From the IMG/VR virus record IMGVR_UViG_3300030101_003124, positions 1-64,000 of that record: a stretch of 64,000 nt of DNA; one strand, 5' to 3'. The DNA is from an uncultured virus (IMG/VR IMGVR_UViG_3300030101_003124) (taxonomy: Duplodnaviria; Heunggongvirae; Uroviricota; Caudoviricetes; Crassvirales). A program made the position numbers and the translations under genes. Within the stretch, counting starts at the first letter, position 1; each line of letters starts with the position of its first letter. The notes beneath the pieces were generated by a model. The model made no database searches, was not told the origin of the DNA, and was given only the letters and a program-made list of their open reading frames with translations. Below, one piece after another: positions 3,779 to 52,142 of this stretch.

Positions 3779-5350
3779 ATGGAATTTAATAACCCTAGTC
3801 AGATCGTAAAAGATCTAAACTTTGGCGATGTTGCCAAAAAAAGAGTTATTACCGGTGTAGAAAAATTAGCATCCGCTGTTAAATCTACACTTGGTGCTTC
3901 TGGTAAGTGCGTAGTATATGAAGACGCAAGAGGAAACCCTGTTATTACAAAAGACGGTGTTACTGTAGCTGAATCAGTTATACTAAGAGATCCTGTAGAA
4001 AACATAGGTGCAACACTTATTAAAGAAGCTGCTAAAAATACAGTGAGAGAAGCAGGTGACGGTACCACTACGGCTACCGTCCTTGCTGAATCACTATTAA
4101 AATTAGCAAATAGTAACGAATATTATGATGAATCTATACGAGATATTAAGCACGGTATGCAAACTGGGCTTAAAAAAGTAGAAGATTACTTAAAAGATAA
4201 TTCAGTAGCGGTAACTGGTGATATGTTAACTAGTGTAGCTACTATAAGTTGCAACGGAGATGCTAATCTAGGTAAGATAATTGCTGAAGCTTATGCTAAA
4301 GTTGGTAAAGATGGCACGGTTTTAATGGAAGAAAGCGAAACTGAAGAGACTTATGCTGACGTTGTTGAGGGTGTTAAGCTATCTGGAGGTCTAACATCTC
4401 AATATTTTGTAACTGATAAAGATAAAAACAGAGCAATACTAGAAAATCCACTAGTTTTAATTGTATCTTCTAAAATACCTAACATAAGAAAGATACAAAA
4501 CATACTAGAACATGTGATAAAAACTGGTAGATCTTTGCTAATTATGGCAGAAGTTGATCAACAGGTCAAATCTGCGCTTTTAATGAATAAAGTTAAAGGT
4601 AATATTAAAGTAAACATTGTAGATTTACCTGCACATGGTAAATATAAAGATCAAACTTTAGATGATTTAGCTTTAATAACTGGTGCAAAGGTCATGAACG
4701 AAGAGCTTGGAGATGATTTAGATCTAATCCAGCCAGATTGCTTGGGTGAAGTAGTAAAATCTGTGACTGACGACAGAACTACAGTCCTGACAACTGGTCC
4801 TCGAACAAGTAAACTTGAAGAAAGACAAGAAGAAATCAGAAAGTTAATAAAAAATGAGGAAAACGGTTATATAAAGAAGCAATTGCAAAAAAGATTATCA
4901 ACACTTTCAGGTTTTGTTGGTGTGATAAAAGTCGGAGCGTACTCAAAAGTTGAAATGAAGGAGAAAAAGGACAGAGTTGAAGATGCTATTTTTGCTACAA
5001 AAGCTGCTTTACAAGAAGGAATCGTTTCAGGCGGTGGAATTGCATTATTAAATGCTGCTTTAAGTATAAAAGAAGAAAATATAGGCGAAGAAATAGTTTC
5101 AAAAGCTATATTATCACCATTTAGAACTATACTTGATAACGCAGGTATTGAAAATGCTAAAGTTCCTAAAAAAATAGGCTATGGTATTGATGTAATTACT
5201 GGAAAAGAGGTCAATATGATTGAAAATGGCATTATTGACCCGGTTTTGGTAACAAAAACGGCACTAAAAAATGCAATTTCAGTAGTTTCTACTATAATTT
5301 CTGCAGATTGTGTAATATCTAATATAAGAGTGGACAATGCAAGCAGTTAA
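3779..5350 (+). CDS. groEL: Chaperonin GroEL (phage-encoded)
   Basis: AVKSTLG, ITKDGVTVA, AGDGTTTATVLA, KEKKDRVEDA, GIIDP motifs. Confidence 0.97.
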   Translation: MEFNNPSQIVKDLNFGDVAKKRVITGVEKLASAVKSTLGASGKCVVYEDARGNPVITKDGVTVAESVILRDPVENIGATLIKEAAKNTVREAGDGTTTATVLAESLLKLANSNEYYDESIRDIKHGMQTGLKKVEDYLKDNSVAVTGDMLTSVATISCNGDANLGKIIAEAYAKVGKDGTVLMEESETEETYADVVEGVKLSGGLTSQYFVTDKDKNRAILENPLVLIVSSKIPNIRKIQNILEHVIKTGRSLLIMAEVDQQVKSALLMNKVKGNIKVNIVDLPAHGKYKDQTLDDLALITGAKVMNEELGDDLDLIQPDCLGEVVKSVTDDRTTVLTTGPRTSKLEERQEEIRKLIKNEENGYIKKQLQKRLSTLSGFVGVIKVGAYSKVEMKEKKDRVEDAIFATKAALQEGIVSGGGIALLNAALSIKEENIGEEIVSKAILSPFRTILDNAGIENAKVPKKIGYGIDVITGKEVNMIENGIIDPVLVTKTALKNAISVVSTIISADCVISNIRVDNASS

Positions 5351-6870: not shown

Positions 6871-7983
6871 ATGGCAAAAATAACAGAAATATTAAAACAC
6901 AATGAGAAATCATTGTCATCTGCAAAACACTTAGTAGATGGTAAAGGACATGGCATGGACGGTCATGATCACACTTCAGCTATAGGTAATATAGATGGGA
7001 TTAAAAAAATTATAAACACTAAAGCTGATGGTACAAAAACTTACGAGGTTCCTCCTGCTGTAGCTGGTGGAGAAGCTGGTGACGCTTATAAAAACAAAAT
7101 GATTGAAATGTATAAGGGTGGCGCTTCAATAGAAGACCTAGTAAAGCAAAAGCACGGTACTGTTGAAGGTTTAACAAAATTATTAGAAGGAGTTACAAGA
7201 ACAACAACAATACCAGGTAGTCAAACATTACAAGATATACCTAGTACAAATCCAGGCACGCCTGGAACTCCTCCGATACCTGAAAAATCAGTGACAGAAG
7301 GTGATTATTTAACAGCTGGTGAAACTAGAGAAGCTGGTAAAATATTAAAACTAAGAAATAAAGGTGGTGATAAAAGAAAGAAACAAGCCACTAAAAGCTT
7401 AAACAAGATGGTTAAGCAAGGTTTAGATATAGATAAAGAAATAGCAGCTGGCAACCAAAGTGTTATTAGCTTACTAGAACAAAGCGGTGGTTATAACAAA
7501 GGTGGTAAATTCAGAAAAGGATTTCTTGGTTTAGGTGGGGTAAATGATGATTTTGTTAGTACATCAGATAAAGTAGATGTTAAAAGCGCAAGTAGTGATC
7601 CTAGAGTTACAAACCCATATGTACGTAGACCTGGTAGTGCACAAGGTGTTAATAGAATGAACTTAGACAATAAAGTTATAACACAAGAAGCTGTAGAAGG
7701 AACAGAGGGAACAGCCGGTACTAGTTCACCAACTACACCAGCTGGTCCAGATGATACAGTTTATAAGAAAAACCCTAACACAAATAAATATGAGGCCGTG
7801 CCTAGTCCTGACACAAAACAAGAGGACATTATTTCTACAACTAGTTTATCATCACAAATGGAAACAAATGTGACTGGTAGTGGCGTAAGACCTAGTAGTA
7901 AGTACAAAGGAAACGCTGTGTCTAGGTTTAAAGTTAAAGGATATAAAATGAGCGGCTTTGGAAACAAGGCTAGTAAAAAATGA
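6871..7983 (+). CDS. Hypothetical G/T/K-rich virion-associated protein, 370 aa
   Basis: ORF track; position in the late operon. Confidence 0.7.
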   Translation: MAKITEILKHNEKSLSSAKHLVDGKGHGMDGHDHTSAIGNIDGIKKIINTKADGTKTYEVPPAVAGGEAGDAYKNKMIEMYKGGASIEDLVKQKHGTVEGLTKLLEGVTRTTTIPGSQTLQDIPSTNPGTPGTPPIPEKSVTEGDYLTAGETREAGKILKLRNKGGDKRKKQATKSLNKMVKQGLDIDKEIAAGNQSVISLLEQSGGYNKGGKFRKGFLGLGGVNDDFVSTSDKVDVKSASSDPRVTNPYVRRPGSAQGVNRMNLDNKVITQEAVEGTEGTAGTSSPTTPAGPDDTVYKKNPNTNKYEAVPSPDTKQEDIISTTSLSSQMETNVTGSGVRPSSKYKGNAVSRFKVKGYKMSGFGNKASKK

Positions 7984-8384
7984 GCAAGATATTAAGTAAA
8001 ATATTTGGCAAAGCAGGTGGCTCTGTTGTAGATAAACTAGCTGGTGTTGCTGATAGATTCATAAGAACAAAAGACGAGAAAGCTGAGTTTGAAAAAGAAA
8101 TGACCAGCATTTTAATAGAAGCTGAAGCTGCTATGCAAAAAAATGTAACCGAAAGGTGGAAAGCAGATTTAGAGCACGGAAACTGGTTAACGCGTTCAGT
8201 TCGTCCTCTCGTACTTATATTCCTCATAGTGGCGACCGTGCTCATGGTATTTATAGATTCAGGTTCAATTAACTTCAATGTTGAAGAAAAATGGACTGAT
8301 TTATTGCAATTAGTACTTATGACAACTATCGGCGCCTATTTCGGCGGACGAAGTGTTGAAAAGTATAATAAAATGAAAAAATAA
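7980..8384 (+). CDS. Putative holin (3TM, GTA-type holin-like)
   Basis: ERWKADL..WLTRSVRPL, hydrophobic helices, GAYFGGRSVEK. Confidence 0.7.
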   Translation: MSKILSKIFGKAGGSVVDKLAGVADRFIRTKDEKAEFEKEMTSILIEAEAAMQKNVTERWKADLEHGNWLTRSVRPLVLIFLIVATVLMVFIDSGSINFNVEEKWTDLLQLVLMTTIGAYFGGRSVEKYNKMKK

Positions 8385-18807: not shown

Positions 18808-19387
18808 ATCATCTGACTACATATCATCTACACTAACGTTTAATAGCGATAGTATACTTTGGACAAATCCTCATGACAATAAAGTGTATGAGGTTATGAT
18901 GAGCTGGGAACAACCTATTATGGATAAAATGGCTGAACTAGCTGTTAACGAAGGCGACGATGTTTTAGAACTGGGTTTTGGTATGGGTATACTTTCAAAT
19001 GCGATACAATTAAGAAAGCCTAAATCACATACTATAGTAGAGTGTCACCCAGAAATAATAGTTAAATTAAAAGAGTGGGCCAGTGATAAAACAAACGTTA
19101 CTATAGTTGAGGGTAATTGGTTAGAAAAAACAGAAGAATTAAGTACTTACGACGCAATATTACAAGATACATATGCGGATGACAATTTACATAATTTTGT
19201 TTCTTTTGTTTGTGATATAGCAAATCCTGGTTGTAAAGTAACTTGGTGGAATAACAAAAACAGTGACACTGACTGGAGTTATTTATTTGATGATTATAAT
19301 TTAACTTTAACTGATGTGGATGTAAATCCACCAGCTAATGAATATTATAATGAAAAGAATTATAAAATACCTTTAAAGATAATATAA
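18800..19387 (+). CDS. Class I SAM-dependent methyltransferase, GAMT/Rmt2-like
   Basis: VMMSWEQPIM, VLELGFGMGI, HTIVECHP, YDAILQDTY. Confidence 0.8.
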   Translation: MFRSSDYISSTLTFNSDSILWTNPHDNKVYEVMMSWEQPIMDKMAELAVNEGDDVLELGFGMGILSNAIQLRKPKSHTIVECHPEIIVKLKEWASDKTNVTIVEGNWLEKTEELSTYDAILQDTYADDNLHNFVSFVCDIANPGCKVTWWNNKNSDTDWSYLFDDYNLTLTDVDVNPPANEYYNEKNYKIPLKII

Positions 19388-19953
19388 TGACAATGCAAGC
19401 ATCGGGACTGATAAAGTTCTCTCAAATAATGGCTGAAATAGATAGTGATGAAGAACCTTTTAGATTAGGTCACGCTAATAATGGTATTTATGAAAATATA
19501 AATATTACTAATAGTAATGCAAATAAACCAGACACTGTTGATCCAGATAGAATAAGCGAGTGGTATAAATACCAACACAACAATAGTGTTAGTACAACAC
19601 CATTTAGCGATTCAAATAACAGTAATAGTGGGGCAACTGGTTCAATAACAGTTTCAACAGGTACATATGTACCTTGGACTGCTAGCACATCTGCTTCATG
19701 GATAACAATAAGCGCATCGTCTAGTTCTGGTACTGGAAATGGAACAGTTAGTTACACTATAGCTTCAAACTCAGGTAGCTCTAGATCAGCAACAGTTGTA
19801 GTTACTTTTACAGTAGGAACAAGCAGTGGGTCTCACCCATCTGGTGCTAATAGTAGCACAACAAGAAGCACGAATGTAAGTCAAAATGCTGGAAGCGGTG
19901 GCGGCGGTGGCGGAGATGGTCCTCCTCCAGGTGGTGGTCGTGGCGAACCATAG
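19387..19953 (+). CDS. BACON-domain protein
   Basis: ITVS..WTASTSASWITI..SGTGNGTVSYTIASN..RSATVVV. Confidence 0.7.
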   Translation: MTMQASGLIKFSQIMAEIDSDEEPFRLGHANNGIYENINITNSNANKPDTVDPDRISEWYKYQHNNSVSTTPFSDSNNSNSGATGSITVSTGTYVPWTASTSASWITISASSSSGTGNGTVSYTIASNSGSSRSATVVVTFTVGTSSGSHPSGANSSTTRSTNVSQNAGSGGGGGGDGPPPGGGRGEP

Positions 19954-19987
19954 GTAAAAAATGTGAAAATAGCGTAATAATATAATC

Positions 19988-20314
19988 ATGGCAATAACAT
20001 ATACATATAAGATAAATAACGTAAGAGTGTATTCAACTAGTGAGTTAACCGATATAGTTAGCGAAGTTGACTATACTTATACAGCTACTGAAGGAACTGG
20101 AGACGATAAAGTTAGCGTCTTTCATGACTTCATGGTAACGTTAAATGAACCTGATAAGAATAATTTTAAAGCTTTCAATGATCTTACAGAGGCAGAAGTA
20201 AGAAATTTTGTTAAATCTGTAGCTGACGTTGAAGGTAGTAAATACATATTAAATTCTTATTTAGAGGCAAAAAAAGCCCCTGTAAAAGTAGACAAAGTTC
20301 TACCTTGGGCATAA
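19988..20314 (+). CDS. Hypothetical protein (tail-assembly type), 108 aa
   Basis: MAITYTYKI...FNDLTEAEV...LPW pattern often seen next to phage fibres. Confidence 0.6.
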   Translation: MAITYTYKINNVRVYSTSELTDIVSEVDYTYTATEGTGDDKVSVFHDFMVTLNEPDKNNFKAFNDLTEAEVRNFVKSVADVEGSKYILNSYLEAKKAPVKVDKVLPWA

Positions 20315-20614: not shown

Positions 20615-20810
20615 TATTGGTAAAGATTATAAAAACGATGCCATGCATTACTCTGTAGGCCAAGAGGTTTATGGTGGGCATACTATTGAAGCTATATTAG
20701 AGGATAAAGATAAGTTTAGCGTTTATATAAAAAAGAACGATGAAATTATACCTTGGAAAGATTTCAATAAAAACATGGCAATATCTGTTGAATATAACCT
20801 AGAGTATTAG
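20589..20810 (+). CDS. Hypothetical protein, 73 aa
   Basis: ORF track; overlaps both neighbours. Confidence 0.7.
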   Translation: MEKLIRKISIGKDYKNDAMHYSVGQEVYGGHTIEAILEDKDKFSVYIKKNDEIIPWKDFNKNMAISVEYNLEY

Positions 20811-21406
20811 TGAAAGGTGTACAAAACTTTATAATAAAACCATTAGGTAGTAGATATAACAACGAGAAAAAAATTGGTGATAAAAATCTTATATTAAATA
20901 CAGATATTTTTCAACATAAATTTGTAAATAGACACGCTGTTGTTATAGAAACTCCTACTGTTGGTGATACAAAAATAAAAAAAGGTGACACTGTTATAGT
21001 GCACCATAATGTTTTTCGTAGATGGCATGATGTAAAAGGTGTTGAAAGAAATAGCAAAAGCTATTACAAAGACGGTTTATATTTTGTTTATCCAGATCAA
21101 GTTTTTGCTTATAATAATGGTAAAGAGTGGTTAGCTACCGATGGTTTTTGTTTTGTACAACCTATTGAAAACGATAGTGTGTATAGCATAAATGCAGAAA
21201 AAGAATTAGCAGGTATATTGTTTTACCCAGATAAACACTTAACTGATGCAGGTTTAAAAAAAGGAGACTTAGTTGGTTTTAAACCTAACACTGCTTACGA
21301 GTTTACAATAGATGGTAAGAAATTATATAGAATTATGAACCACTCAATTACAATTAAATATGAGTACAAAGGAAACGAAAAAGAGTATAATCCAAGCTGG
21401 TCATAA
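20810..21406 (+). CDS. Protein with two GroES-like repeats (GTG start)
   Basis: FIIKP..AVVIETP..IKKGDTVIV and CFVQP..GILFY..LKKGDLVGF..IDGKKLYRI. Confidence 0.5.
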   Translation: MKGVQNFIIKPLGSRYNNEKKIGDKNLILNTDIFQHKFVNRHAVVIETPTVGDTKIKKGDTVIVHHNVFRRWHDVKGVERNSKSYYKDGLYFVYPDQVFAYNNGKEWLATDGFCFVQPIENDSVYSINAEKELAGILFYPDKHLTDAGLKKGDLVGFKPNTAYEFTIDGKKLYRIMNHSITIKYEYKGNEKEYNPSWS

Positions 21407-21635
21407 AGCTGTTGAAGAATTAATAAAAGTAGCTAAAGAACCTATAGTCGATAGCGATGATGATATATCAGCTGATAGATTAAAAAATGCTGCAGCAACA
21501 AAAAAGCTAGCTATATTTGATGCTTTTGAAATATTAAATAGAATACAAGACGAGCAAGATATGCTTGACGGTAAAGCAAAAGAAGAGAAAAAAGAAGAAA
21601 GTTTTTCTGGTTTTGCTGAAAGAAGATCTAAGTAA
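21360..21635 (+). CDS. Putative terminase small subunit or helical protein
   Basis: 91 aa, helical; TAATG-coupled to terL. Confidence 0.45.
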   Translation: MSTKETKKSIIQAGHKAVEELIKVAKEPIVDSDDDISADRLKNAAATKKLAIFDAFEILNRIQDEQDMLDGKAKEEKKEESFSGFAERRSK

Positions 21636-23851
21636 TGTACGAGCAAAGCTTATATAAGGTTATAGAACCTATAAAAATAAACACCATTAAAAGATTAAAT
21701 AAATCTAAAAAATGGGAATATGGATATAATAAAGAACACGATGTTATAGTTGTATCTAAAACTGGTATGATAGGTGAAATCTATGAAATACAAAACTTAA
21801 AAATAGCTTTACCAAAAAAACCTAAAGATATTTATAAGTTTAAAAGCGATAGGTGGGAAGTAACTGAATATCCAAAAGAATTAAATAGAATAAAAACGAT
21901 ATTTGATTGGAAAGAATATCCTAAAGATTTTAAAAGTAAGTACATAGATTATATAGAAAATGAGTTTAAAAAAAGAGAAGAAGGTTTTTGGTATTATAAC
22001 AAAGGTGTTTCTACTTATATTACTGGTACTCATTACATGTACTTGCAGTGGTCCAAAATTGATGTTGGGAAACCAGACTTTAGAGAAGCAAATAGATTAT
22101 TCTACATCTTTTGGGAAGCTTGTAAAGCAGACAGAAGGTGTTATGGAATGTGCTATCTTAAAAACCGTAGATCGGGATTCTCGTTTATGGCCTCAGGAGA
22201 GGTGGTTAATGCAGCTACTATTAGTTCCGATTCACGATTCGGCATATTGTCCAAATCTGGGCCCGACGCTAAGAAAATGTTCACAGATAAGGTGGTCCCA
22301 ATATCGGTCAATTATCCGTTCTTTTTTAAACCCATACAGGACGGTATGGATAGACCAAAAACCGAACTCGCATATAGAGTACCCGCTAGTAAGCTCACAA
22401 GACGGAACATTACAAGTACCGATAAACCCGAAGCCCTACAAGGACTCGATACAACGATCGATTGGAAGAACACCGGTGATAACTCCTATGATGGAGAGAA
22501 ACTTAAACTCCTCGTCCATGATGAATCAGGGAAGTGGGAAAGGCCAAACAACATCCTCAACAACTGGAGGGTCACGAAAACAACATTAAGGTTAGGTAGT
22601 AGAATTATTGGTAAGTGTATGATGGGCTCAACGTCAAATGCTTTAGATAAAGGTGGTGATAACTTTAAAAAACTTTATAAAGATTCAGATGTCACAAAAA
22701 GAAACCGCAACGGACAGACTAGTTCGGGATTATATAGTTTGTTCATACCTATGGAATGGAACTACGAAGGATTCATTGATTCTTATGGCTTACCTGTATT
22801 CGAAACACCCGATACTGAGACAACAGGACCCCATGGAGATTATATCGATACAGGGATTATCGAGCATTGGCAAAACGAAGTTGACGGATTAAAACACGAT
22901 GGAGACGCTTTAAATGAATTTTATAGACAGTTTCCAAGAACTGAAGAACATGCTTTCAGAGATGAAACTAAAAACAGTATATTTAATTTAGCAAAAATAT
23001 ACGAGCAAATAGATTTTAATGAAGAGTTAAATAGTAGTGCAGCTATAACTACTGGTAACTTTCAATGGGTTAATGGTATAAAAGATACAAGAGTTATATT
23101 TTATCCTGACATAAAAGGAAGGTTTAAGGTATCATGGGTACCACCTAGTAGACTACAAAATAATATTATATTAAAAAATAATAGAAAATATCCTGGTAAC
23201 GAGCACATGGGTGCTTTTGGTTGTGATAGTTATGATATATCAGGCACAGTTGATGGTAAAGGATCTAAAGGTGCTTTACACGGTTTAACTAAGTTTAGTA
23301 TGGAAGACTGTCCACCTAGTCAGTTCTTTTTAGAATATATAGCTAGACCAGCAACCGCAGAGATGTTTTTTGAAGATGTTTTAATGGCTTTAGTATTTTA
23401 CGGGATGCCATTACTTGCAGAGAATAATAAACCTCGTCTATTGTATTATTTACGAAGACGTGGTTATAGAGGTTTTTCAATGAATAGACCTGATAAAGTT
23501 TGGAATAAATTATCAGTTGCTGAAAAAGAAGTGGGTGGTATACCAAACTCAAGTGAAGATATTAAACAAGCACATGCAGCTGCTATTGAAATGTATATAC
23601 AAGAGCACGTTGGTATGAAGTCAGATGGTTCTCATGGTACAATGTATCTTACAGAAACTTTACAAGACTGGGCTAAGTTTAATATAAACAATAGAACAAA
23701 GTACGATGCTACTATAAGTTCTGGTTTAGCTATTATGGCTTGTAACAGACACTTATATACGCCAAATGCTAATATAGAAAAACAGAAATTAAACATAAGT
23801 ATTGCCAGATATAAAAACGATGGTAGTATATCAAAACTAATACAAAATTAA
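21635..23851 (+). CDS. terL: Terminase large subunit
   Basis: Walker A-like LKNRRSGFS, Walker B LLVHDESGK, GST motif, nuclease GAFGCDSYD. Confidence 0.9.
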   Translation: MYEQSLYKVIEPIKINTIKRLNKSKKWEYGYNKEHDVIVVSKTGMIGEIYEIQNLKIALPKKPKDIYKFKSDRWEVTEYPKELNRIKTIFDWKEYPKDFKSKYIDYIENEFKKREEGFWYYNKGVSTYITGTHYMYLQWSKIDVGKPDFREANRLFYIFWEACKADRRCYGMCYLKNRRSGFSFMASGEVVNAATISSDSRFGILSKSGPDAKKMFTDKVVPISVNYPFFFKPIQDGMDRPKTELAYRVPASKLTRRNITSTDKPEALQGLDTTIDWKNTGDNSYDGEKLKLLVHDESGKWERPNNILNNWRVTKTTLRLGSRIIGKCMMGSTSNALDKGGDNFKKLYKDSDVTKRNRNGQTSSGLYSLFIPMEWNYEGFIDSYGLPVFETPDTETTGPHGDYIDTGIIEHWQNEVDGLKHDGDALNEFYRQFPRTEEHAFRDETKNSIFNLAKIYEQIDFNEELNSSAAITTGNFQWVNGIKDTRVIFYPDIKGRFKVSWVPPSRLQNNIILKNNRKYPGNEHMGAFGCDSYDISGTVDGKGSKGALHGLTKFSMEDCPPSQFFLEYIARPATAEMFFEDVLMALVFYGMPLLAENNKPRLLYYLRRRGYRGFSMNRPDKVWNKLSVAEKEVGGIPNSSEDIKQAHAAAIEMYIQEHVGMKSDGSHGTMYLTETLQDWAKFNINNRTKYDATISSGLAIMACNRHLYTPNANIEKQKLNISIARYKNDGSISKLIQN
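21960..22589 (+). CDS. Candidate overprinted +1-frame gene inside terL, 209 aa
   Basis: Long alternate ORF coinciding with atypical terL codon choice (CTC, GTC, ATC). Confidence 0.4.
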   Translation: MSLKKEKKVFGIITKVFLLILLVLITCTCSGPKLMLGNQTLEKQIDYSTSFGKLVKQTEGVMECAILKTVDRDSRLWPQERWLMQLLLVPIHDSAYCPNLGPTLRKCSQIRWSQYRSIIRSFLNPYRTVWIDQKPNSHIEYPLVSSQDGTLQVPINPKPYKDSIQRSIGRTPVITPMMERNLNSSSMMNQGSGKGQTTSSTTGGSRKQH

Positions 23852-34700: not shown

Positions 34701-37700
34701 GATCCAGATCAAACAGTTTATGAAATACTAAATGTTCAAGCTGAGCATTTACACAACTGGAGTGATGAAGGCCAAGATTTAACTACATGGACAAACCAAA
34801 CAAAATGGACTACCAACCATGGTATTAGATATAAAATGACGTTAGACAAACAAGTAACTTGGTCTCCTGTAACGTCTCCAAATTCTGTGTCTTCGCCATC
34901 AAACCCTGATAGTAAAAATAAATTTGGTCAGAACGTTTTTCCGTTAACTAGATGGAAAAAAGGAGGTAGACATAGAAAATCGTTTACTGAACTTCAAATA
35001 TTAGAACAAAAGAACGACGAGGTTAGTTTTGTTTCAAGAAATCCAGCAATATTTGAAACTGAACCAAAAGAAAGAGCTGATTTAAATTTATATTACGAAA
35101 CTAAAAATACTTATCCTATATCTGATTTAGGTGTAGATAAAGAGCTAAGCTGGTATAATTGTTTTACTTTTGGTAATGGTGTAGAAAGTGATAGAATAAG
35201 AGATGACTTTAATGCTTCTAGGTTAGATAATGGCCCTAGAGTATCTACTGAGTTAGCAGAGCCATATAAGTCAGAGCGTAAAACAAATGGTTTAATATGG
35301 TCTGGTATATATAATAGTAATAGTAGAACCAATAATTTAAATCAATTTATACAAGCTGAAGCTATAACTAAAGATTTAAATCCTACTTACGGTAGTATAC
35401 AAAAGTTATTTTCTAGAAATACAAACGTATTAGCTTTTTGTGAAGATAAAGTTTTAAAAATACTAGCAAACAAAGACGCTTTATTCAATGCTGATGGTAG
35501 TAATAATTTAACAGCAACAAATAAAGTTTTAGGCCAGTCAATGCCTTTCTTAGCTGATCATGGTATATCTACGCATCCTGAGTCTTTTGCAGAATATGCT
35601 TTTAGAATATATTTTGCAGATTATCAAAGAAACGCTATATGTAGATTATCTAACGATGGTATAGAAGAAATAACTAGATATAGTATGACTGATTATTTTG
35701 GTGATGCTTTTAATGCTATTAGCTCTGGCGAATTAATAGTAGGTACTTATGATGAAGATAAACATAACTATAATATAACAATTAATAGTGAAAGAGTAGA
35801 TACAAATGTTCCTAGTACAACTAGTTTTACTGAAAAAGTAACTGGCTGGACAAGTAGAAAATCTTTTATACCTGAATCTGGCGTATCGTTAAATGGTTCT
35901 TATTATACGTTTAAAAACGGTGAAATATGGGAGCATAATGCAAATGCTACAAGAAACTCTTTTTATGGCGCTGCTGCTCAACCATCTACTGTTGATCTTA
36001 TATTTAACGATGAAGGTTCTAGTATTAAGAATTTTAAAACAATAAACTACGAAGGAACTACAAGTAGAGTTTATGATACAAGTCCTGGTAAAGAAACAGC
36101 TGTTACAACTCAAGGTTGGTACACGCCTACAATAACAACTGATCAACAAGATGGACATGTTAAATATTTTATTGAAAAAGAAGGTAAGTGGTACAACTAT
36201 ATAAAAGGTGTTTCAACTACTTGGGACAATAATTCGGGTTCTGGTAACCTAGATATTAGAGAGTTTTCAACACAAGGTATAGGTAATATTACAAGTAACG
36301 GTGTTGGTGGCGCTGCTCAAACAGTGCAAAACGTCACTGTATCTATTAATCCCACAACTAGCAATCCTAACTTTACAGCCTCAATACCTCAGATTATAAC
36401 CGCTACACCTGGTGAAACAGTTAATAACAGTTTAACATTTACACTATCACCTGTACATGGAAATGCTTTTTATCCTAGTCCAAACAACTTGACGTTTACT
36501 AGTGAAACAAGTAGCCCTGTTGCTGATGCAATGGGTACTCCAACTGGTTTAACAACTATAAAAGAAAATGGCGACATAGACGTAGTAATACCATTAAACT
36601 TTACTATGCCTTCGGCTAATCAATCAGTTACCGTTAACATAGCTGGTAGAGCTTTAAAATCTAGTAAAAGTATTAATGGTACACTAGATATTGTAGGAGA
36701 AAACTTTACAAAAGCGTTTACACCTTCTGGAGAAGCTTATAGCGGCACCGGTGCCCAAGGCAGTGGACCTGTTACTTTAAAAACAGTTGTATTAACAGCT
36801 GCTTCAAATCATAAGTTTAGTATATTACCAGCTTTAGATACAAGTGGTTTAAATGATGTAAACGATTATGATATAACAGTTACTGAAACCACAGGTAGTA
36901 TAGCTGGTGGTGATTTAACTGTTGTAACAATTGTTGTAAAATATACTTTCCCTGCTTCTAATGTTACTGGTGATGTTATAGGTATATTAGGAACAACTGA
37001 AACTACATTTGTTCCTTCTACAGATAAAATATATAACTATCAAATAAACGAAGCAAATATATCACATATAGGTGAAACAAGAAATTTAGTTTTATTTGGT
37101 GATCCGGGAGCTACCGTTACAATAGAAGCTGAAAACGCTGCAAGTACTTCTGAAAGCTTAATATCAGGTCCTAAGGTAGTGACTATAGCTTCTGCAACTG
37201 ATGAATTAACAGGTACTATAGCTGGTCAACATACTGAGGAAATATACTTCCCACCTATAACAGGAAGTTCTAATATAACTTATAATGTAACTTTAACAGA
37301 AACTTCTTCTGATTCTTTTCAGTTTAATTCTGGTAACTCACCAAAAGTAATAGCTTTAACACAAGCACCTTCAGTTAATGTTAATTTTGCAATATCAAAA
37401 ACAAGTACAACAAATCTAACAATACCTTCAACAGTATATACGTTTACTGGTAACGGTAGTAGTTATGATCCTAGAACACACGAGGGTTATGAAGATCCTG
37501 TTGTTTCTTGGGTTATTTCTTCTCAAAATAATAAATTATTTAGATTACCTGTTACACCTACAAACGCACATATAACAGAGGGTAGTACTAGCGGTGAAAC
37601 AAGATTATTAACAGGTGGAACTAAAGTTTTACCATTATTAGATATAACAGTTAACAATGCTGTTACTCCAGCTACAGCAACCGTAAACGGTGATTATTCA

Positions 37701-38480
37701 ATACACTTTTTAGGTACTAGCACTCAAACAGCTACTTTAAATTTAGATAATCTTATAAGTTTAAACACCGCGCCAACAACATCAAATAGTAGTTTTACAG
37801 CTAACTTAAACGGAGCTACAACACACGGTTTAACAGCAGCAGATGCTGATGGAGATAGTTTATCATACACTGTTGTTAACGCTCCTTCAAAAGGTACGCT
37901 TTCAATATCAACAAACGGTGTTGCAACATATACTAGAAACGTGGGTCAAACAGGAACTGACTTGTTTAGATTTAAAGTAAGTGACGGTTTACAAGATAGC
38001 AACACAGCAACCGTAAACATAACGCTTGGCTCGGGTAGTTTATTTAGTGTTAACACTGTTTATAAATGGAAAGATTTATCAGATACAGGAAATGAAACTA
38101 CAGAATATAACATGTCAGCTGTATTTAGTGGTACTTTAAATTCTACTAACTTAACATCAGGTAGTAGCAATGATATAACATTACAAGTTACGGACTGGGA
38201 TGTTAATGATACAAACGCTGGTGTTCCTACATATATGAACGACATATATGATTTCCATCAAGTATTATATAGACTTATAAACTCTTCTGGAACAACAGTA
38301 GCTAGTGGAGATATACCTATAAATCGTACAGGTTCAGGTAGTGGAACGTCAACGTTTAATAACAGTGAAAGAACAGGTGTGGTTAAAACTAACGTTCTTG
38401 ATACTAATCATAACAGTTTATCAGCTGAATCACACACTTTAGAAATAATATTAGTTTATAGAAACAACGCAACCCCATAA
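31785..38480 (+). CDS. Tail nozzle/muzzle (stabilisation-type) protein with Ig-like C-terminal extension
   Basis: N-terminal F.SGKMNKDLDERL.P.GEYRDALN; GISTHPESFA; cadherin/Big_9-like ADADGDSLSY..FKVSDG near 37764-38030. Confidence 0.7.
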   Translation: MAEIKNTFTSGKMNKDLDERLIPKGEYRDALNIDVVNSESSDVGSIENCFGTVQRSFLSQVGNTCIGSCTYGKEDKILWFIRGPVQAGTGIDLIAEYNVQTGTPRAVLVDVYQWKGVVATANQGSNTVVLDGSIGTYNIRRDMTFTIGVNVYTVTAVNGNNITLASNLTAAISSGTTITFHAERVLNFSAFADRRITGINAIDGYLYWADAQSEPKKIKIKRCISGTPDPISHTKHRVNGTNVGYIKEEHITVIRKYPLDAPTISMSDSPFTGAISATCTTAAGVFTYKDQAGNTFPVPAGTSHVPTGLLDYSTSSSGSSKVIAPIAFIGSNLAFDVGHTIKLKADATLNGITEDLEVRLVIDNILSQNATGKTTQVTIASISAGIPSAELTWVATLEQEDPFYELVFPRFAYRWKYQDGEYSAISPFTDAAFLPEKVFGFDYDAQNGFNKAMTNNVRTITLGGWATKPVDVTEVDILYKEDGKTAVYTLETLKKNEITFDITSELIHALLPSNQMLRPYDNVPRYAKAQEITGNRLLYGNYVQQYDLLEDPEFVVSINRTPCPIKIPNQSLKSIRTYQVGVVFLDKYGRQTPVFSSDSANVTLHQQDSDKINKLQARITTAAPSWATHYKYYVKEPSAEYYNLAMDRWYDAEDGNVWISFPSSERNKVAVDDYLILKKEHSSNDPVFSGSGGTIKYKILAIDNEAPDFLKQTKSSLGKINTQYGRGQAPTEGFPQKDFKTIMIPGADIANSSLKNIASESTGDKYLRFGDQSGNVSEYYEISSITRYDIGGDGDYDGSDDYYEIELKTGMGADVNFTGTPTNKKPNLTFEWFIEELDLYKAEFVGRFFIKINKDSALRKHLLDKDVDQQYVIKHEEPVYYLKGSRDQDDYKGAQIFSIDYGTTHKPREFSGYNTGKSFIQGNKKVDFRLTNMGPETAASGWYYPGKSEFRNNNYKIHSALRTNGTLFRWKDDPDQTVYEILNVQAEHLHNWSDEGQDLTTWTNQTKWTTNHGIRYKMTLDKQVTWSPVTSPNSVSSPSNPDSKNKFGQNVFPLTRWKKGGRHRKSFTELQILEQKNDEVSFVSRNPAIFETEPKERADLNLYYETKNTYPISDLGVDKELSWYNCFTFGNGVESDRIRDDFNASRLDNGPRVSTELAEPYKSERKTNGLIWSGIYNSNSRTNNLNQFIQAEAITKDLNPTYGSIQKLFSRNTNVLAFCEDKVLKILANKDALFNADGSNNLTATNKVLGQSMPFLADHGISTHPESFAEYAFRIYFADYQRNAICRLSNDGIEEITRYSMTDYFGDAFNAISSGELIVGTYDEDKHNYNITINSERVDTNVPSTTSFTEKVTGWTSRKSFIPESGVSLNGSYYTFKNGEIWEHNANATRNSFYGAAAQPSTVDLIFNDEGSSIKNFKTINYEGTTSRVYDTSPGKETAVTTQGWYTPTITTDQQDGHVKYFIEKEGKWYNYIKGVSTTWDNNSGSGNLDIREFSTQGIGNITSNGVGGAAQTVQNVTVSINPTTSNPNFTASIPQIITATPGETVNNSLTFTLSPVHGNAFYPSPNNLTFTSETSSPVADAMGTPTGLTTIKENGDIDVVIPLNFTMPSANQSVTVNIAGRALKSSKSINGTLDIVGENFTKAFTPSGEAYSGTGAQGSGPVTLKTVVLTAASNHKFSILPALDTSGLNDVNDYDITVTETTGSIAGGDLTVVTIVVKYTFPASNVTGDVIGILGTTETTFVPSTDKIYNYQINEANISHIGETRNLVLFGDPGATVTIEAENAASTSESLISGPKVVTIASATDELTGTIAGQHTEEIYFPPITGSSNITYNVTLTETSSDSFQFNSGNSPKVIALTQAPSVNVNFAISKTSTTNLTIPSTVYTFTGNGSSYDPRTHEGYEDPVVSWVISSQNNKLFRLPVTPTNAHITEGSTSGETRLLTGGTKVLPLLDITVNNAVTPATATVNGDYSIHFLGTSTQTATLNLDNLISLNTAPTTSNSSFTANLNGATTHGLTAADADGDSLSYTVVNAPSKGTLSISTNGVATYTRNVGQTGTDLFRFKVSDGLQDSNTATVNITLGSGSLFSVNTVYKWKDLSDTGNETTEYNMSAVFSGTLNSTNLTSGSSNDITLQVTDWDVNDTNAGVPTYMNDIYDFHQVLYRLINSSGTTVASGDIPINRTGSGSGTSTFNNSERTGVVKTNVLDTNHNSLSAESHTLEIILVYRNNATP

Positions 38481-38482
38481 TT

Positions 38483-38857
38483 ATGGCAACAGTAACATTA
38501 GAATTTGACAACCCAATAAACGAATCATTACAAGCTAAAGCGCTTAATATTGCTACAGCTACATCACAAGCTGATGAAGGTGCTTGGGATATTATATACT
38601 ATGTAAGTAATAATGGTTCTATAATAAGATTGGGTGAGTGTATAGCAATTGATACAGCAACGAACACTATTTCTGTAGAAGTTGACAACAGTGTACCTAG
38701 ACCAAACGATGGTAACTTTGTGTTTTTTGGTAAAGATGTACAGGCGGGAACATCGGGTGTTATAGGTTATTATGCTCAAGTACAGATGAGAAATGACTCT
38801 ACAGATAGAGCAGAACTGTTTGCAGTTAGCTCTGAAATCTTTATAAGTAGTAAATAA
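38483..38857 (+). CDS. Hypothetical structural protein, 124 aa
   Basis: ORF track; GYYAQVQMRND..AELFAV. Confidence 0.7.
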   Translation: MATVTLEFDNPINESLQAKALNIATATSQADEGAWDIIYYVSNNGSIIRLGECIAIDTATNTISVEVDNSVPRPNDGNFVFFGKDVQAGTSGVIGYYAQVQMRNDSTDRAELFAVSSEIFISSK

Positions 38858-38899
38858 ATGATAAAAAGTGTAATTATAAATATATAAATAAATAAGAAA

Positions 38900-39652
38900 A
38901 TGAGTAATTCACCAGCAAAATTATTTCCAGTAGCTTTAGCCATGCAGGCCGCAGGTGGCGTGTATAATATTGCTAAGGGTATAATAGGTAGTAAAAAAAG
39001 AAAACAAGAGCAAAGAGAAGCTCAAGGTGAGTATAATAGAATGAAGGATAAAATTCTTCAGCAAGATACTAGTAATCCTTACGCAAACATGGAAAACGCG
39101 TATGAAGATCTTACCGTTAATCAACAAATGAATGAGTTTAAAGCTCAACAACAAAATCAAGCTTTAGCTAATACAATGCAAACAATGAGTGCTTCAGCTG
39201 GTGGTAGCGGTATTGCTTCGTTAGCTCAGGCTATGGCTCAACAACAAACACAGAACATACAGGCAAATGCTGCTTCTATAGGTCAGCAAGAGCAAGCTAA
39301 TCAAATGAAAATGGCTCAAGGTGCTGAAAGAGTTGATTTGTTACAAAGAAAAGGAGAGATGATGTCTAGAGAGATGCAGGCTAATCAAAATAAAACAGAG
39401 TTTGGTTTTTCGGCTAATAGATTAGAAAAAGCTAATCAAGCTAGAGAAGAAGCTAGAAAAAATTTAGAATCTGGTATAGCTACAACAGCAACAGCTGGAA
39501 TGAAGCTAGGTAATATGTTCGGTAAATCAACTAAAATCGGTGGATTTGGTGGTGGTGGCCAAGACGGTTTAGGTGGAGGTTTCCAAAATCACCCGTTGTT
39601 ATTTGGTGAAGGTGGAGTACCGTTAAGATCAGATAATTCATATGGTACATAG
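38900..39652 (+). CDS. Putative ejection (DNA pilot-like) protein
   Basis: Hydrophobic A/G-rich N-terminus, Q/A/M-rich coiled coil. Confidence 0.6.
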   Translation: MSNSPAKLFPVALAMQAAGGVYNIAKGIIGSKKRKQEQREAQGEYNRMKDKILQQDTSNPYANMENAYEDLTVNQQMNEFKAQQQNQALANTMQTMSASAGGSGIASLAQAMAQQQTQNIQANAASIGQQEQANQMKMAQGAERVDLLQRKGEMMSREMQANQNKTEFGFSANRLEKANQAREEARKNLESGIATTATAGMKLGNMFGKSTKIGGFGGGGQDGLGGGFQNHPLLFGEGGVPLRSDNSYGT

Positions 39653-41069: not shown

Positions 41070-44000
41070 ATGTCAAATCATAATTACGAAGATTTATTGA
41101 CTTGGTGGAATACACCACAAGAAGATCCTATTATAGACCCTGATCTTCCTAAACCCTTTGATATAGCTAATCAACCAAACCCACGTATATTTGCTGGTGG
41201 TGGAATGGACGCTAAATTTAAGCCACAAGCTGTATACGATCAAGAGGAAGAAAACAGAAAGCAAAACAAAATAAAAGAAAACAAAAGAATAAACGACGTT
41301 AATTTTGTAAACCAGTATAATGGTGCTAAACAACCTATAATGGATTGGTTAAATAATCCTGAAAATATAGCTAACATCTATGGTGTTGACGTTGATCAAT
41401 ACGATAACGTAGTTCAATGGAAAAACATACTAAGAGGATATGATGATCAAGCTGAAGGTGATGCTGATGCTTATAAAAAAATAGCAAAAGAATTAAAAAA
41501 ACAATTCGGTGATCAAAACTGGTACGGTGGTTTTGAGCAAAAAGAAGGTTACGAAAACCTATTAGAAAGAGACTTAGACAAACTAATAAAATACGGTATT
41601 GAGAAAAAAGTATCAGAAGAAGATAATTTAAATAAAGATACTAATAAAAAAAGATTAAACTCTGAAATAGTAAAAAGAGCTGAAGATCCTAAGTTTAATA
41701 GTGAAGGCGCTATTGTTGCCACCTATGAAGAATACGATTATTTAGCATCAACTCCAGCTGAACAAAATGTAATGGATATTACAAAACAGCTAAAAAAATC
41801 CATGGCAGGTGAAACCATTGAAGATGAAAATGGTAATATTCTTACACCTGAAATCCTACAACAAAAATTAAAGAAAGCATATGATGAGCTTAATAAAAGC
41901 GAATATGGTAATAATGTTAAAAACCTATATGACTGGGATGGTAATCCTATTGAAACTTTAGATAAAACAAAAGATTCATACGAGTTTACAGAAGAAGAAA
42001 TAAATGCTTATAAAGAAATAATAGAAAACGGTGGTCAACTAACAGAACCTACATACGCAGAGCATATAAGATCATTAAGAGAGGGTAAGTTCAAAGAACT
42101 TGCTTTAAATGACTTTGAGGGTGAAGACATGTATGATGTTGTCGTTAATGATCCTGAAGCTTGGGAAGTATTAAAAGAATATAAAACAGGTGCTGTAGAA
42201 AATGGTTTTACTTATAGAGTACCTATGAGTGTATTAAGTAAAAATTTTAGTAGAACAATAGCTACTGATGGTGATAGTGCTGGTGGATCAAACGTGATAA
42301 CTGGAGAGGAACAAGCTGCTATAGAACAAGGTACTGGACAAAATATAATAACTGGTAATAATTTTGATTCACCATTAGGTTATTTTGGTTTATTAGAAAA
42401 TGATAAAAAACAAGAATTTGGTTGGTTAGAAAGAAATTTTTACGATGAGGATTTATTTAGTGATAAAGACTTGTCAAGAGCATTTAAATTAAAAGTTAGA
42501 GACCACAGAGATAACAGAAAACAAATACTTTTAGAAAAAGAAGTGTTAAGACAAATGGATGCAATGAACATTGATCCAACACAAAAACTAGAAGGACAAG
42601 GCTTTAAAGACTTTATGAAACAAGGTTTACTTAAAGCTGGTGAAGGTTTTAAAGGCGATTTAGCACAATGGGCAGGTTTTGATAAAGTATTTGAAAAATA
42701 CGATGAAGACAGTTACAATAAAGTTTATAAAAGAGATATATACACTATACGAAAAGAAAAAGACGTTGTACAAACATTAGAAGATACTTATGGTGGTGTT
42801 GTAACTGAAGAAATGAAAAAGAGACTTGACAGGTCAGTTGGTTATAAAACATGGGAAGGTTTTACTGGTTTTATACCTGCGTTAGCAGAGTTTGCTGCTA
42901 TAGATGTTGCTGCTAAAAAAGTTGGTGTATTTACAGGTATACCTAAATTAGCTAAAAACTTATATAAAGCCGGTAGAGGTGCTGGCATGAGTGTTAAGTC
43001 TTCTAGAGGATTAGCACACACAACCAACTTTGTATTACATGCTATGTACGAAGAAGCTAAAATGAAAGCTGCTTTTGACGAATATTATCATATGGGTGGT
43101 GGCGTTGCTTTTTACTCTATAGGAAAAGCTTTACCATTTTTAAAATCTGCAAGCCCTACATTAAACAACGTTGTTAACAATATAGGTAGAGGTGGTATAG
43201 CCGGTACGTTATCTGTTCAAGGTGCACAAAACCTTGAGGCGTTAGTTGAAGATTTAAAAGGTAATAAAACCTTTATGTCTCATTTAGAAGAAACTTACTT
43301 TAATGAAAACGATGAGTTTAAACTATCAGACACAGCACAAACAGCTTTAGTTGACTTTTTAGTATTTGGTACTTTAGGTATAAGAGGTATGGCTAAACAA
43401 GGTGGTCAAATAAGAAAAGGTTATGATGGTCTTGGTAAAATACCAGCCTCATTAGGTATAGCTCCTGTAAGATCACAAACGTTAAGAGGTAAAGTTTGGT
43501 GGAAAGGTATTGAGCAAGTTAGAAACGAATCAGTTGCTGTAACAAAACAAATAAATGAACAGATTTCATTTTTAGAAAATCAAATGAAAACCTTAGAAGG
43601 TAATAATCCAACCACAAAACAGAGATTAGAAAAATTAAAAGCAGATAGAAAAAAATATCAAGAGCTTTATATAAACTCAGAGAATATGTTGATGACAGCA
43701 TATAGATTTGAAGACTGGCAAGATGATGCTAAAGCAACAGAGCACGTTAATAAAGTTTTTGATAATGTAAAAACTATTATTGATCCTGAAGGTAATTTAG
43801 AAATGATTGCTGGTAAAGAAGCACCTAAGTGGGTTACAGACAAAACTGCTGCAGCTGAAATAAACGCTGCTAGAAACAGAATATGGATAAACACTAACAA
43901 AGCAGAACCTGGTAAATTACCTCATGAAATAGTACATTACGCATTTAAAGAACTTATAAAAAGAAATCCTGATGTAGCTGCACAATTAAGAACACAGCTA

Positions 44001-51057: not shown

Positions 51058-51341
51058 TGGCAAATCAAATTGGAGAAAACACAAAGGTAACATTAGACCT
51101 TAAAACAATAGGTATTATTGTAGGTTTTACAATTACTTTAGCAAGTATGTATTTTGTAATGCAAGCAGATATAGCTAAAGCTATGGAACTACCAGCACCT
51201 GTTATTGATAGAGTTGAATATGATTTAAAAGATGAATTAATTCGTCAGACAATTATGGATACGCAAGAAGACGTAGAAGAAATTAAAGAAACTATTGACA
51301 AGATAGATCAAAGATTATACGAAATACAAAGAAACAGGTAA
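51057..51341 (+). CDS. Single-TM coiled-coil protein, 94 aa
   Basis: TIGIIVGFTITLASMYFVM followed by heptads; TAATG overlaps on both sides. Confidence 0.7.
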   Translation: MANQIGENTKVTLDLKTIGIIVGFTITLASMYFVMQADIAKAMELPAPVIDRVEYDLKDELIRQTIMDTQEDVEEIKETIDKIDQRLYEIQRNR

Positions 51342-51784
51342 TGAAAGAAAAAACTAAAATTTTTATAATGTATATGCTTATTTTAATACTAGCATTTACA
51401 GCTAGCCTTGCAATGGCACAATCAGACGTGCCAGAAAAATATTGGATAGATGATACTAATTTTGAAGAAAAAATAAATATAAAAGAGGCTTTTGGAGACG
51501 ATAACAACAAACCTGTTGTAGTTGAGTTTTGGGCAAAGTTTAACGAAGTAAACTGTTTTGCTGAGTGGGATCAGTTAGAAGATGCTATTTATTATAGAGT
51601 TGATATAGCTAAAGCTCCAACAGCTAAAAAGAAATACAAAGTCCGTATGGCACCAACTATTATAATATATAAAGATGGTTTTAAAGAAGAAGTTTTTAAA
51701 GCAGGTTTAGATCTTGAATTACCTGCAGGTCTCGAAGAAATTCAAGAAGCAATAAATGAAGTTAATAACGCAAGTAAATTTTAA
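51341..51784 (+). CDS. Exported thioredoxin-fold protein lacking CxxC
   Basis: Signal peptide; PVVVEFWAKFN..YRVDI..YKVRMAPTIIIYKDG. Confidence 0.7.
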   Translation: MKEKTKIFIMYMLILILAFTASLAMAQSDVPEKYWIDDTNFEEKINIKEAFGDDNNKPVVVEFWAKFNEVNCFAEWDQLEDAIYYRVDIAKAPTAKKKYKVRMAPTIIIYKDGFKEEVFKAGLDLELPAGLEEIQEAINEVNNASKF

Positions 51785-52142
51785 GCTATGTGTCCTTTTT
51801 GTCCTATTTGCATTTGTAAGTAATGCACAATTATTAAGTGAAAAAGATAAACAGTTACATTTTGTAGCTGGTAGCTTGGCTAGTGCAACCGGCTATACGT
51901 ATGTGTGGAACAAAACAAAGGATAAAAAATTATCTTTAATGGCTGGTATAGGTACTTCTATATTAGCTGGATCAATAAAAGAAATATTAGACTCTACTCA
52001 ACCAGGTAACAAGTTTGACACAAGAGATCTAACCGCTACAGCACTTGGCGGTATAACTGTAAGTGTTACAATTAATTTATTTAATAATGATAAATCTAAT
52101 AAAAAAGTTCGTAAAAGACGTTTGGGCGTATTTATGGAGTAA
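51756..52142 (+). CDS. YfiM/DUF2279-like membrane protein
   Basis: DKQLHF..AGSIKEILD..FDTRDLTATALG. Confidence 0.6.
   Translation: MKLITQVNFKLCVLFVLFAFVSNAQLLSEKDKQLHFVAGSLASATGYTYVWNKTKDKKLSLMAGIGTSILAGSIKEILDSTQPGNKFDTRDLTATALGGITVSVTINLFNNDKSNKKVRKRRLGVFME

Follow-up and report, generated by a model that had tools for sequence, protein, structure and literature searches.

The window analysed here is a stretch of 64,000 nucleotides from an uncultured virus of the Crassvirales (IMG/VR record IMGVR_UViG_3300030101_003124, positions 1 to 64,000). It appears to represent most or all of the genome of a tailed phage (the nearest complete relatives measure ~60 kb), and its gene content includes GroEL- and GroES-like genes, a tail fibre, the terminase large subunit gene (terL), a portal, structural genes, an M15 endolysin, a ribonucleotide reductase, a primase-helicase and an Erf-type annealing protein. 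Inside terL (21635..23851), on the same strand, lies a second open reading frame (ORF), 21960..22589, which begins with ATG, comprises 209 codons plus a TAA stop, and is set in the +1 frame relative to its host gene (21960 - 21635 = 325 = 3 x 108 + 1). The first-pass annotation had singled out this nested ORF as a probable overprinted gene, and its account of the coordinates, of the N-terminus, of an alternative in-frame ATG at 22062 and of the CTC CTC GTC codons at 22508-22516 is accurate. Comparison with relatives makes it very probable that 21960-22589 is a real protein-coding gene under selection.

The +1 frame of terL is free of stops over 210 codons (21957-22587); its second-longest +1 run amounts to 81 codons, and the longest run in the +2 frame to 28. 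The stop that stands one codon ahead of the nested ATG (Table 1) has its counterpart in many homologues, where a stop directly precedes the ATG. The identity of the host gene as the terminase large subunit is given by a full-length profile match (PHROG 6681, 'terminase large subunit', E 9e-167, residues 23-737) and by the portal-PHROG gene that follows directly at 23853. No Pfam family matches terL, phmmer and profile searches of the PDB with terL return chance hits only (E above 0.1), and an AlphaFold model of its residues 1-420, built from 15 sequences, has a predicted local distance difference test score (pLDDT) below 50 over residues 168-341. The overlap with the nested ORF covers terL residues 109-318; position and a Walker-B-like Leu-Leu-Val-His-Asp-Glu motif, taken alone, suggest that this is the ATPase side of the protein. 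In the nested frame the codons of that motif specify S-S-S-M-M-N.

Table 1. Features of the terL locus and segments of the nested ORF (positions of the window)
Feature	Coordinates	Strand	Basis
terL, terminase large subunit, 738 aa; older host gene, frame 0	21635..23851	+	ORF; PHROG 6681; portal gene next
TAG closing the +1 frame, one codon ahead of the nested ATG	21954..21956	+	sequence; open run begins at 21957
Nested +1 ORF, proposed overprinted gene	21960..22589	+	shuffles; conservation by clade
Codons 1-27: ATG, Lys-rich start, single hydrophobic segment, Cys27; proposed export/anchor signal	21960..22040	+	
Codons 28-46 (T-C-S-G-P-K-L-M-L-G...Q..D): conserved segment past the hydrophobic stretch	22041..22097	+	synonymous-constraint peak
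Codons 47-209: hydrophilic basic tail, no confident predicted fold, little sequence constraint	22098..22586	+	
Last ~41 codons: Ser/Thr/Gly-rich, ending ..T-T-S-S-T-T-G-G-S-R-K-Q-H; highest GC3 block	22464..22586	+	
terL Leu-Leu-Val-His-Asp-Glu, Walker-B-like (CTC CTC GTC CAT GAT GAA)	22508..22525	+	motif read by eye

The nested ORF coincides with the shift in terL codon usage and base composition that the first-pass annotation had reported. The GC content at third codon positions of terL (GC3), taken in 30-codon blocks, is 0.13-0.27 ahead of the ORF, 0.33-0.53 over 21995-22625 and mostly 0.10-0.37 beyond it, and the most GC-rich 600-nt window of the entire 64 kb is 22001-22600 (GC 0.422). GC skew drops to about -0.04 over the overlap, and the gain in GC is therefore mostly a gain in C; over the tail of the nested ORF (codons 47-209) the third positions of terL hold C at a frequency of 0.22 and G at 0.18, as against 0.08 and 0.09 elsewhere. 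(The patch of the window that ranks second in GC, at 19600-20100 with a GC of 0.40-0.44, coincides with the Gly/Ser/Thr-rich low-complexity C-terminus of the ORF at 19387-19953; its GC is driven by amino-acid content and it carries no long off-frame ORF.)

Codon permutation, proposed at first pass as a check on ORF length, was applied as two null models of 5000 shuffles each, one exchanging synonymous codons over the whole of terL, the other only among the 212 local codons, which keeps local GC3. None of the whole-gene shuffles reaches a +1 run of 210 codons (the longest run averages 62 codons, with a maximum of 167). The local shuffles generate 5.2 +1 stops on average, where the single one observed is the terminal stop, and 11 of the 5000 have one stop or fewer. 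No such scarcity of stops affects the +2 frame (25 observed, 20.3 expected), and the depletion is therefore frame-specific. The +1 frame reopens, past three closely spaced stops, at 22647-22890; this is the 81-codon run mentioned above, and because ORF-less homologues also have it, as their longest +1 run, it looks like a composition effect and not like a second nested gene.

What the raised GC3 does achieve is a reduction of the expected number of +1 stops from 9-17 to about 5. The open frame might on that account be a by-product of a GC3-rich stretch of terL, brought in by recombination with a relative of higher GC or maintained by selection on the translation of terL itself, with nothing translated from the +1 frame. 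The distribution of the open frame among homologues speaks to this directly. Named phages provide only distant relatives: tblastn (87 hits) returned an uncultured podovirus at 62% identity and, at ~45%, elemoviruses of Flavobacterium and phages of Cellulophaga, Tenacibaculum and Maribacter. The comparison was accordingly built on IMG/VR loci, of which 80 are 72-86% identical, 80 lie around the 62% relative and 38 were reached with a divergent +1 protein, itself taken from the protein database, as query. The alignment comprises 192 terL genes that are complete enough, the window's among them. A FastTree phylogeny of the C-terminal columns outside the overlap, rooted on the elemovirus (a quick build, with Shimodaira-Hasegawa-like support only), places clade III (82 genes) as sister to clades I and II together (109 genes, support 96); clade I has 92 genes, including the window, and clade II has 17 (support 100).

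The +1 run at the window's position is at least 200 codons long in all 17 genes of clade II. In clade I, 27 genes have runs of at least 200 codons, 29 of 150-199, 8 of 100-149 and 28 of fewer than 100. In clade III no gene of the 82 has a run of 150 codons (the maximum is 119), and in the single outgroup gene the run is 49 codons long. For clades I and II combined this amounts to 44 of 109 genes with at least 200 codons and 73 of 109 with at least 150. Frequent +1 stops among homologues, which the first-pass annotation had named as the finding that would count against an overprinted gene, are not what these two nearest clades display. When the local shuffles are repeated on the 44 long-ORF genes, 2.4-8.7 stops are expected, and a frame without any stop turns up in 0-4 of 1000 shuffles per gene (in one gene, 20 of 1000).

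Clade III also supplies the control that largely refutes the proposal of a compositional by-product, which we regard as very unlikely. It includes 48 genes with a regional GC3 of at least 0.43 (0.43-0.67), each of which has 5-16 +1 stops and none a run longer than 119 codons; composition alone therefore does not open the frame, just as shuffles that retain local GC3 almost never do. Divergence is near saturation, with differences at four-fold sites in 52-55% of pairs within each class, and remote pairs of ORF-bearing genes have diverged about as much in the overlap (0.42 in one example) as beyond it (0.43). It is true that terL is mosaic. Over 413 codons downstream, the loci L052 and L055 do not differ at all, yet within the overlap they differ by 4% (96% identical); for the window and L070, identity is 93% within the overlap and 82% downstream. 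This mosaicism would suit the by-product proposal, as would the lack of sequence constraint in most of the nested ORF's tail (see below). Nevertheless, the terL protein tree derived from the overlap agrees with that obtained outside it, and it does not divide ORF-bearing from ORF-less genes into two deep alleles. The recombined allele, which the first-pass annotation had raised as an alternative source of the GC shift, is rejected as the cause of the open frame; the mosaicism itself is real.

The by-product proposal also leaves the fine structure of codon choice unaccounted for. A stop arises in the +1 frame wherever a terL codon NTA is followed by A or G, or a codon NTG by A. Within the overlap of genes with runs of at least 200 codons, the NTA share of Leu, Ile and Val codons is 52% (157/302) before C or T and 3% (12/396) before A or G. 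Downstream in the same genes the corresponding shares are 67% and 59%, and inside the overlap of ORF-less clade I genes they are 67% and 48%. In the window alone, NTA is used at 6 of 14 such codons before C or T and at none of 18 before A or G. The depletion of +1 stops across terL homologues that was suggested at first pass as a thing to look for is thus present, and it takes the form of an avoidance of NTA only where a +1 stop would result. In ORF-bearing genes the at-risk columns still vary among CTT, CTC, TTG, CTG, GTT, GTC, GTG, ATT and ATC, whereas ORF-less relatives have TTA, CTA, ATA and GTA there, including TTA or CTA at the at-risk Leu columns of the LLVHDE region.

The GC3 rise, moreover, ends where each lineage's ORF ends. 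In alignment columns 316-357, GC3 is 0.69 in clade I and 0.65 in clade II where the ORF is full-length (ending at column 355 or later), 0.36 where it ends slightly earlier, and 0.27 where it ends at column 315 or before; on both flanks GC3 falls back to about 0.2-0.3. The Ser/Thr/Gly-rich C-terminal block (22464..22586 in the window) exists only where the nested ORF is full-length. This, too, speaks against a by-product.

Synonymous-site constraint, also proposed at first pass as a check, was measured as codon homozygosity at conserved-residue terL columns minus the expectation from class- and region-specific codon usage. It is borne out for one part of the nested ORF and not for the rest. In ORF-bearing clade I genes the excess peaks at 0.24-0.35 over nested codons ~5-45, and in the class with 150-199 codons it is 0.14-0.24 over the same codons; no such peak appears in clade I genes that lack the ORF (-0.03 to 0.14) or in clade III (0.02-0.09), so that it is confined to ORF-bearing lineages, as the proposal of a by-product would not anticipate. 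Most of the tail, on the other hand, is at baseline. Within the constrained segment the +1 residues G31, L34, Q44 and D46 are nearly invariant. The terL codons fixed over the nested N-terminus in ORF-bearing genes are ACT, ATT and TAC; as read from the sequence and the alignment, the choice of ACT and ATT yields Leu in the nested hydrophobic stretch, while TAC and CAG (20/20 each) yield the Thr and Ser of C-T-C-S-G. In the C-terminal block, four Asn codons of terL are AAC in 18-19 of 20 ORF-bearing genes.

The strongest constraint is limited to about 135 nt, and this sharpness, together with the retention of AAC codons in the C-terminal block, could also be put down to a nucleic-acid element within terL (an RNA structure, a packaging signal or an internal promoter) beside which the open frame would be incidental. 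Such an element predicts neither a frame- and context-specific avoidance of TAA, TAG and TGA over 630 nt, nor a conserved ATG, nor a GC3 shift that tracks the end of the ORF; and the fixed codons are precisely those to which the hydrophobic segment owes its Leu, and C-T-C-S-G its Thr and Ser. We consider it extremely improbable.

An ATG upstream of the hydrophobic core is present in all 27 clade I genes of the class with at least 200 codons, in 26 of the 29 with 150-199 codons and in all 17 of clade II. The exceptions are two genes with only GTG or TTG and one with no candidate start. The position of the ATG is clade-specific. These observations bear on how the frame would be entered. A frame that is selected to be open could be reached by +1 frameshifting of ribosomes that translate terL, the result being a shortened TerL N-terminus with the +1 sequence attached, and no ribosome-binding site can be pointed to for an independent start, since Bacteroidota-type hosts do without Shine-Dalgarno sites. 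Yet the open run precedes the ATG by no more than 1-2 codons, both in the window and in many relatives, so that an upstream shift site would have no room; the ATG stands ahead of the hydrophobic segment in 70 of the 73 ORF-bearing genes in spite of its clade-dependent position; and a Lys-rich start followed by a hydrophobic segment is what a free N-terminus would be expected to look like. A conserved slippery motif was not noticed, though no formal search for one was made. Entry by frameshifting is, on balance, a most unlikely arrangement.

The explanation that best accommodates the whole of these observations, and to which we assign a probability of about 0.8, is an overprinted +1 gene located on the ATPase-side half of terL and ancestral to clades I and II. 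The comparisons show selection at work in four ways, each legible in terL codons: it keeps the +1 frame open; it keeps an ATG ahead of the hydrophobic N-terminal segment; it fixes the synonymous codons of terL over the first ~45 nested codons; and it pushes terL third positions to C or G exactly as far as the nested ORF extends. It is through these C and G third positions that an otherwise hydrophobic and stop-ridden frame becomes a hydrophilic, basic, Ser/Thr/Pro/Arg-rich tail. Comparison of the sequences provides good support for regarding this as a new family of overprinted gene in an unusual host gene.

Overprinting would have taken place without any insertion, in an ancestor shared by the two sister clades, whose members are uncultured phages of aquatic origin; terL is collinear across the overlap with the ORF-less genes of clade III and with the elemovirus outgroup, and has no insertion. 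An intein-borne nuclease gene in terL was considered and rejected: the dual-coded DNA is not an insertion, and searches of Pfam and PHROG find no Hint, intein or nuclease family in the +1 product (nor Pfam any family in terL). The simplest history would be a single gain at the base of clades I and II followed by repeated loss or shortening in clade I, with most members of the two clades retaining the gene and several sub-lineages having lost it.

The predicted product of the window's nested gene has a mass of 23.7 kDa and an isoelectric point of 9.8. It opens with M-S-L-K-K-E-K-K and continues with a single hydrophobic segment (residues ~9-27) and Cys27; Kyte-Doolittle averages are highest at residue 9 for a 19-residue span (2.74) and at residue 16 for an 11-residue span (3.50), and there is no other hydrophobic segment. 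The positively charged n-region and the hydrophobic h-region of a lipoprotein signal are both present. AlphaFold2, supplied with 36 aligned +1 proteins, gives a mean pLDDT of 42, with a helix over residues 4-29 at ~70 as the sole part of that quality and values below 50 for residues 32-175 and 177-209. Ser, Thr and Pro make up 26.4% of the residues after Cys27, in keeping with the S/T/P-rich character noted at first pass. The grand average of hydropathy (GRAVY) of the tail is -0.83 in ORF-bearing genes; read in this frame, ORF-less relatives give +0.21 and GC3-rich clade III genes -0.22. The net charge of the tail, about +12 per 100 aa, is similar to what the corresponding frame has in relatives without the ORF and in clade III (+8 to +13).

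Among 34 sequences read from 87 word-index hits and 154 profile hits (the latter being the representatives returned by a profile built on 36 relatives), no free-standing homologue was found: they are nested ORFs (~210 aa), fragments, or chimeric sequences in which the reading passes between the terL and the +1 frame, with the one exception of an unrelated repeat protein (E 2.9e-4). A cluster look-up of 10 database matches returned no names. The chimeric database proteins (P0080, P0085-P0087, P0095, P0096, P0116, P0153 and P0161) probably stem from indel errors in assembly, and illustrate how gene callers come to pick up the nested frame.

The resemblance of the N-terminus to a lipoprotein signal peptide, which the first-pass annotation had pointed out, holds for one clade and fails for the other. 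Against a PROSITE-type lipobox pattern, all 17 clade II proteins match, with the sequence ...G-S-C in which the Ser at -1 is supplied by a TTC codon; none of 56 clade I proteins does, the window having L-I-T-C and the clade as a whole Thr, Ile or Leu at -1. The hydrophobic segment of clade II lies ~22 codons further upstream than that of clade I, and the two clades therefore build the same succession of positive start, hydrophobic stretch and Cys from different terL codons. The Cys pair is, as read from the sequence and the alignment, forced by the Met-Tyr and Tyr-Leu-Gln codons of terL, and is therefore uninformative on its own; the caveat entered at first pass, that the +1 frame of an AT-rich gene is hydrophobic by default, is thus justified in part. 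Membrane targeting of the product is probable in both clades, and lipid anchoring likely in clade II; a true lipoprotein in this window is unlikely.

A specific identity that these features bring to mind is that of an Rz1-like outer-membrane lipoprotein (o-spanin) acting in lysis. The +1 nesting is that of Rz1 in Rz and of T7 18.7 in 18.5, the N-terminal signal-like segment is followed by Cys27, the lipobox of clade II is matched throughout with Ser at -1, and the gene would be expressed late, together with terL. An i-spanin, however, is neither the host gene, which is terL, nor was one identified as a partner elsewhere; clade I proteins uniformly lack an acceptable residue at -1; the mature part would be ~180 aa, far longer than that of Rz1 (roughly 40 aa); and the ORF is frequently lost, whereas spanins are usually required in Gram-negative hosts. 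Nor is the nested ORF close to the M15 endolysin (52262-52774), from which it lies ~30 kb away; a holin-family gene (7980-8384) is ~44 kb from that endolysin. Taken together, these points make an o-spanin improbable. Directly upstream of the endolysin, a thioredoxin-like ORF (51341-51784) is overlapped by a 'lipoprotein'-PHROG ORF (51756-52142), whose N-terminus resembles an ordinary signal peptide devoid of a lipobox Cys.

For the overprinted gene a sequence of events can be put forward as follows. Ribosomes would initiate at the nested gene's own start, on the late transcript of terL, and its Lys-rich start and hydrophobic segment would direct the product to the cytoplasmic membrane, leaving the tail outside the cytoplasm. 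In clade II the product would probably be lipid-anchored through the Cys of the canonical lipobox; in the window's clade it would more likely be a signal-anchored protein or one cut by signal peptidase I. The tail may act by its composition and length and not by a fold. A late function in the envelope, be it as an accessory to lysis or in blocking receptors or superinfection, is our best guess as to its role.

A number of points weigh against this reading. Expression-type data consist of short contigs from four marine RNA-library runs, which cover parts of terL (one of them, 276 nt long, is identical to 22170-22445); they show neither strand nor start nor frame, may represent carried-over DNA, and are counted neither way. 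The nested ORF is often lost or shortened, with runs below 100 codons in 28 of 92 clade I genes and of 150-199 codons in 29, and must therefore be dispensable. How many times it was lost is uncertain on account of terL mosaicism, and the trees are quick or FastTree builds with only Shimodaira-Hasegawa-like support, from which no loss count is given. The classes used for codon choice and constraint were defined by ORF length, which makes the lack of stops in the ORF-bearing class partly circular; what is informative in the NTA comparison is the size of the contrast, its restriction to the overlap and the turnover at at-risk columns, and the support free of circularity comes from the contrast between clades, the shuffles and the constraint peak. 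In most of the tail (the remaining ~165 codons) synonymous constraint stays at baseline and transitions alter the +1 residues freely, so that it is the open frame and the composition that make the case for the tail. Much of the nested N-terminal sequence, both Cys included, is dictated by conserved terL residues. The clade I motif, L-[IT]-[TIL]-C, fails at the -1 position of the lipobox, and one subclade of clade I does not use the synonymous change, TTT to TTC in a single codon, that would provide the canonical Ser at -1. Finally, PHROGs and Pfam return no family for the +1 product, the best ESM Atlas score, 0.77, is below the threshold for a lead, and no confident fold is predicted.

A bolder and distinctly tentative proposal is that clades I to III preserve a de novo gene at several stages. 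Clade III would have the closed proto-frame and clades I and II the full gene of 210-240 codons, with an export signal built twice, ~22 codons apart, as a lipobox in clade II and a signal-anchor in clade I, and with shortened or decayed forms in many lineages of clade I. The product might be a new late, envelope-anchored protein, whose basic low-complexity tail would serve in timing lysis or disrupting the outer membrane, or else in blocking receptors against superinfection and against the loss of progeny on debris; its placement in terL would tie it to a gene that the phage cannot lose.

In its layout the arrangement is familiar. In lambda Rz1/Rz and T7 18.7/18.5, likewise, one phage gene fully encloses a second, on the same strand but in another frame, whose product has a signal-like start and a Cys. 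There are differences: the window's ORF is hosted by the terminase motor gene instead of by the gene of a partner spanin, the locus is outside the lysis region, the lipobox is non-canonical in the window's clade, and there is no sequence similarity. The window's ORF, at 209 codons, is also the longer, T7 18.7 (a nested spanin annotated as such in the RefSeq record) spanning 252 nt and Rz1 having about 60 codons. The only annotated same-strand +1 ORFs inside a terL that could be documented are 19.2 and 19.3 in gene 19 of T7 (L202, NC_001604; gene 19, 37370-39130), at 38016-38273 and 38553-38726, the offsets of both leaving a remainder of 1 on division by 3. They measure no more than 258 and 174 nt, stop included, and are listed as 'hypothetical protein', and a literature search on them found nothing; we know of no comparative or expression support for either, whereas the window's ORF measures 630 nt and has strong comparative support. 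The T7 terL is unrelated in sequence to that of the window, T7 being absent from the 87 tblastn hits. A search of the literature for overlapping or overprinted genes in the terminase large subunit found no paper on a terL-nested gene; the passages that matched concern Rz/Rz1 or capsid frameshifting.

An apparent parallel in the pattern of constraint is gene E of phiX174, a single-gene lysis protein of 91 aa encoded in the +1 frame inside the essential morphogenesis gene D, in which the N-terminal membrane segment is conserved and the sequence of the basic tail matters little. Membrane segment plus basic tail is also the pattern found in the window's ORF. None of these nested genes of lambda, T7 and phiX174 is akin in sequence to the window's ORF. 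The two phages also differ: phiX174 is a small single-stranded DNA phage that has no endolysin, while the window's phage has double-stranded DNA (its nearest complete relatives being ~60 kb), its own M15 endolysin and a holin-family gene.

The position of the nested ORF gives it a significance beyond its own function. terL is the most conserved gene of tailed phages and a standard marker for phylogeny and for analyses of codon usage and selection; a gene within this gene, rare in itself and kept open in two clades, would mean that part of the 'silent' variation of terL in this phage family is not silent. Gene callers normally discard nested same-strand ORFs, and in doing so hide real phage genes. 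With hundreds of metagenomic variants in which the frame is closed, open, shortened or lost, the locus would furnish a gene-birth series in which the selected features (openness, start codon, hydrophobic N-terminus, tail composition) can be read from codon choice. Should the product prove to be an envelope protein, it would be a new player in the infection cycle of abundant marine phages, the nearest named relatives of which infect Flavobacterium, Cellulophaga, Tenacibaculum and Maribacter.

Some further features of the window may be recorded. A run of 10 N at 57934-57943 presumably marks an assembly gap. A gene for a protein of 2915 aa (41070-49817) has an antisense ORF of 182 codons nested in it (47102-47650, - strand). 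The GroES-like co-chaperonin gene (20810-21406, PHROG 13932) lies just upstream of terL, 15 kb away from the GroEL-like chaperonin gene (3779-5350, PHROG 5725, E 1e-129).

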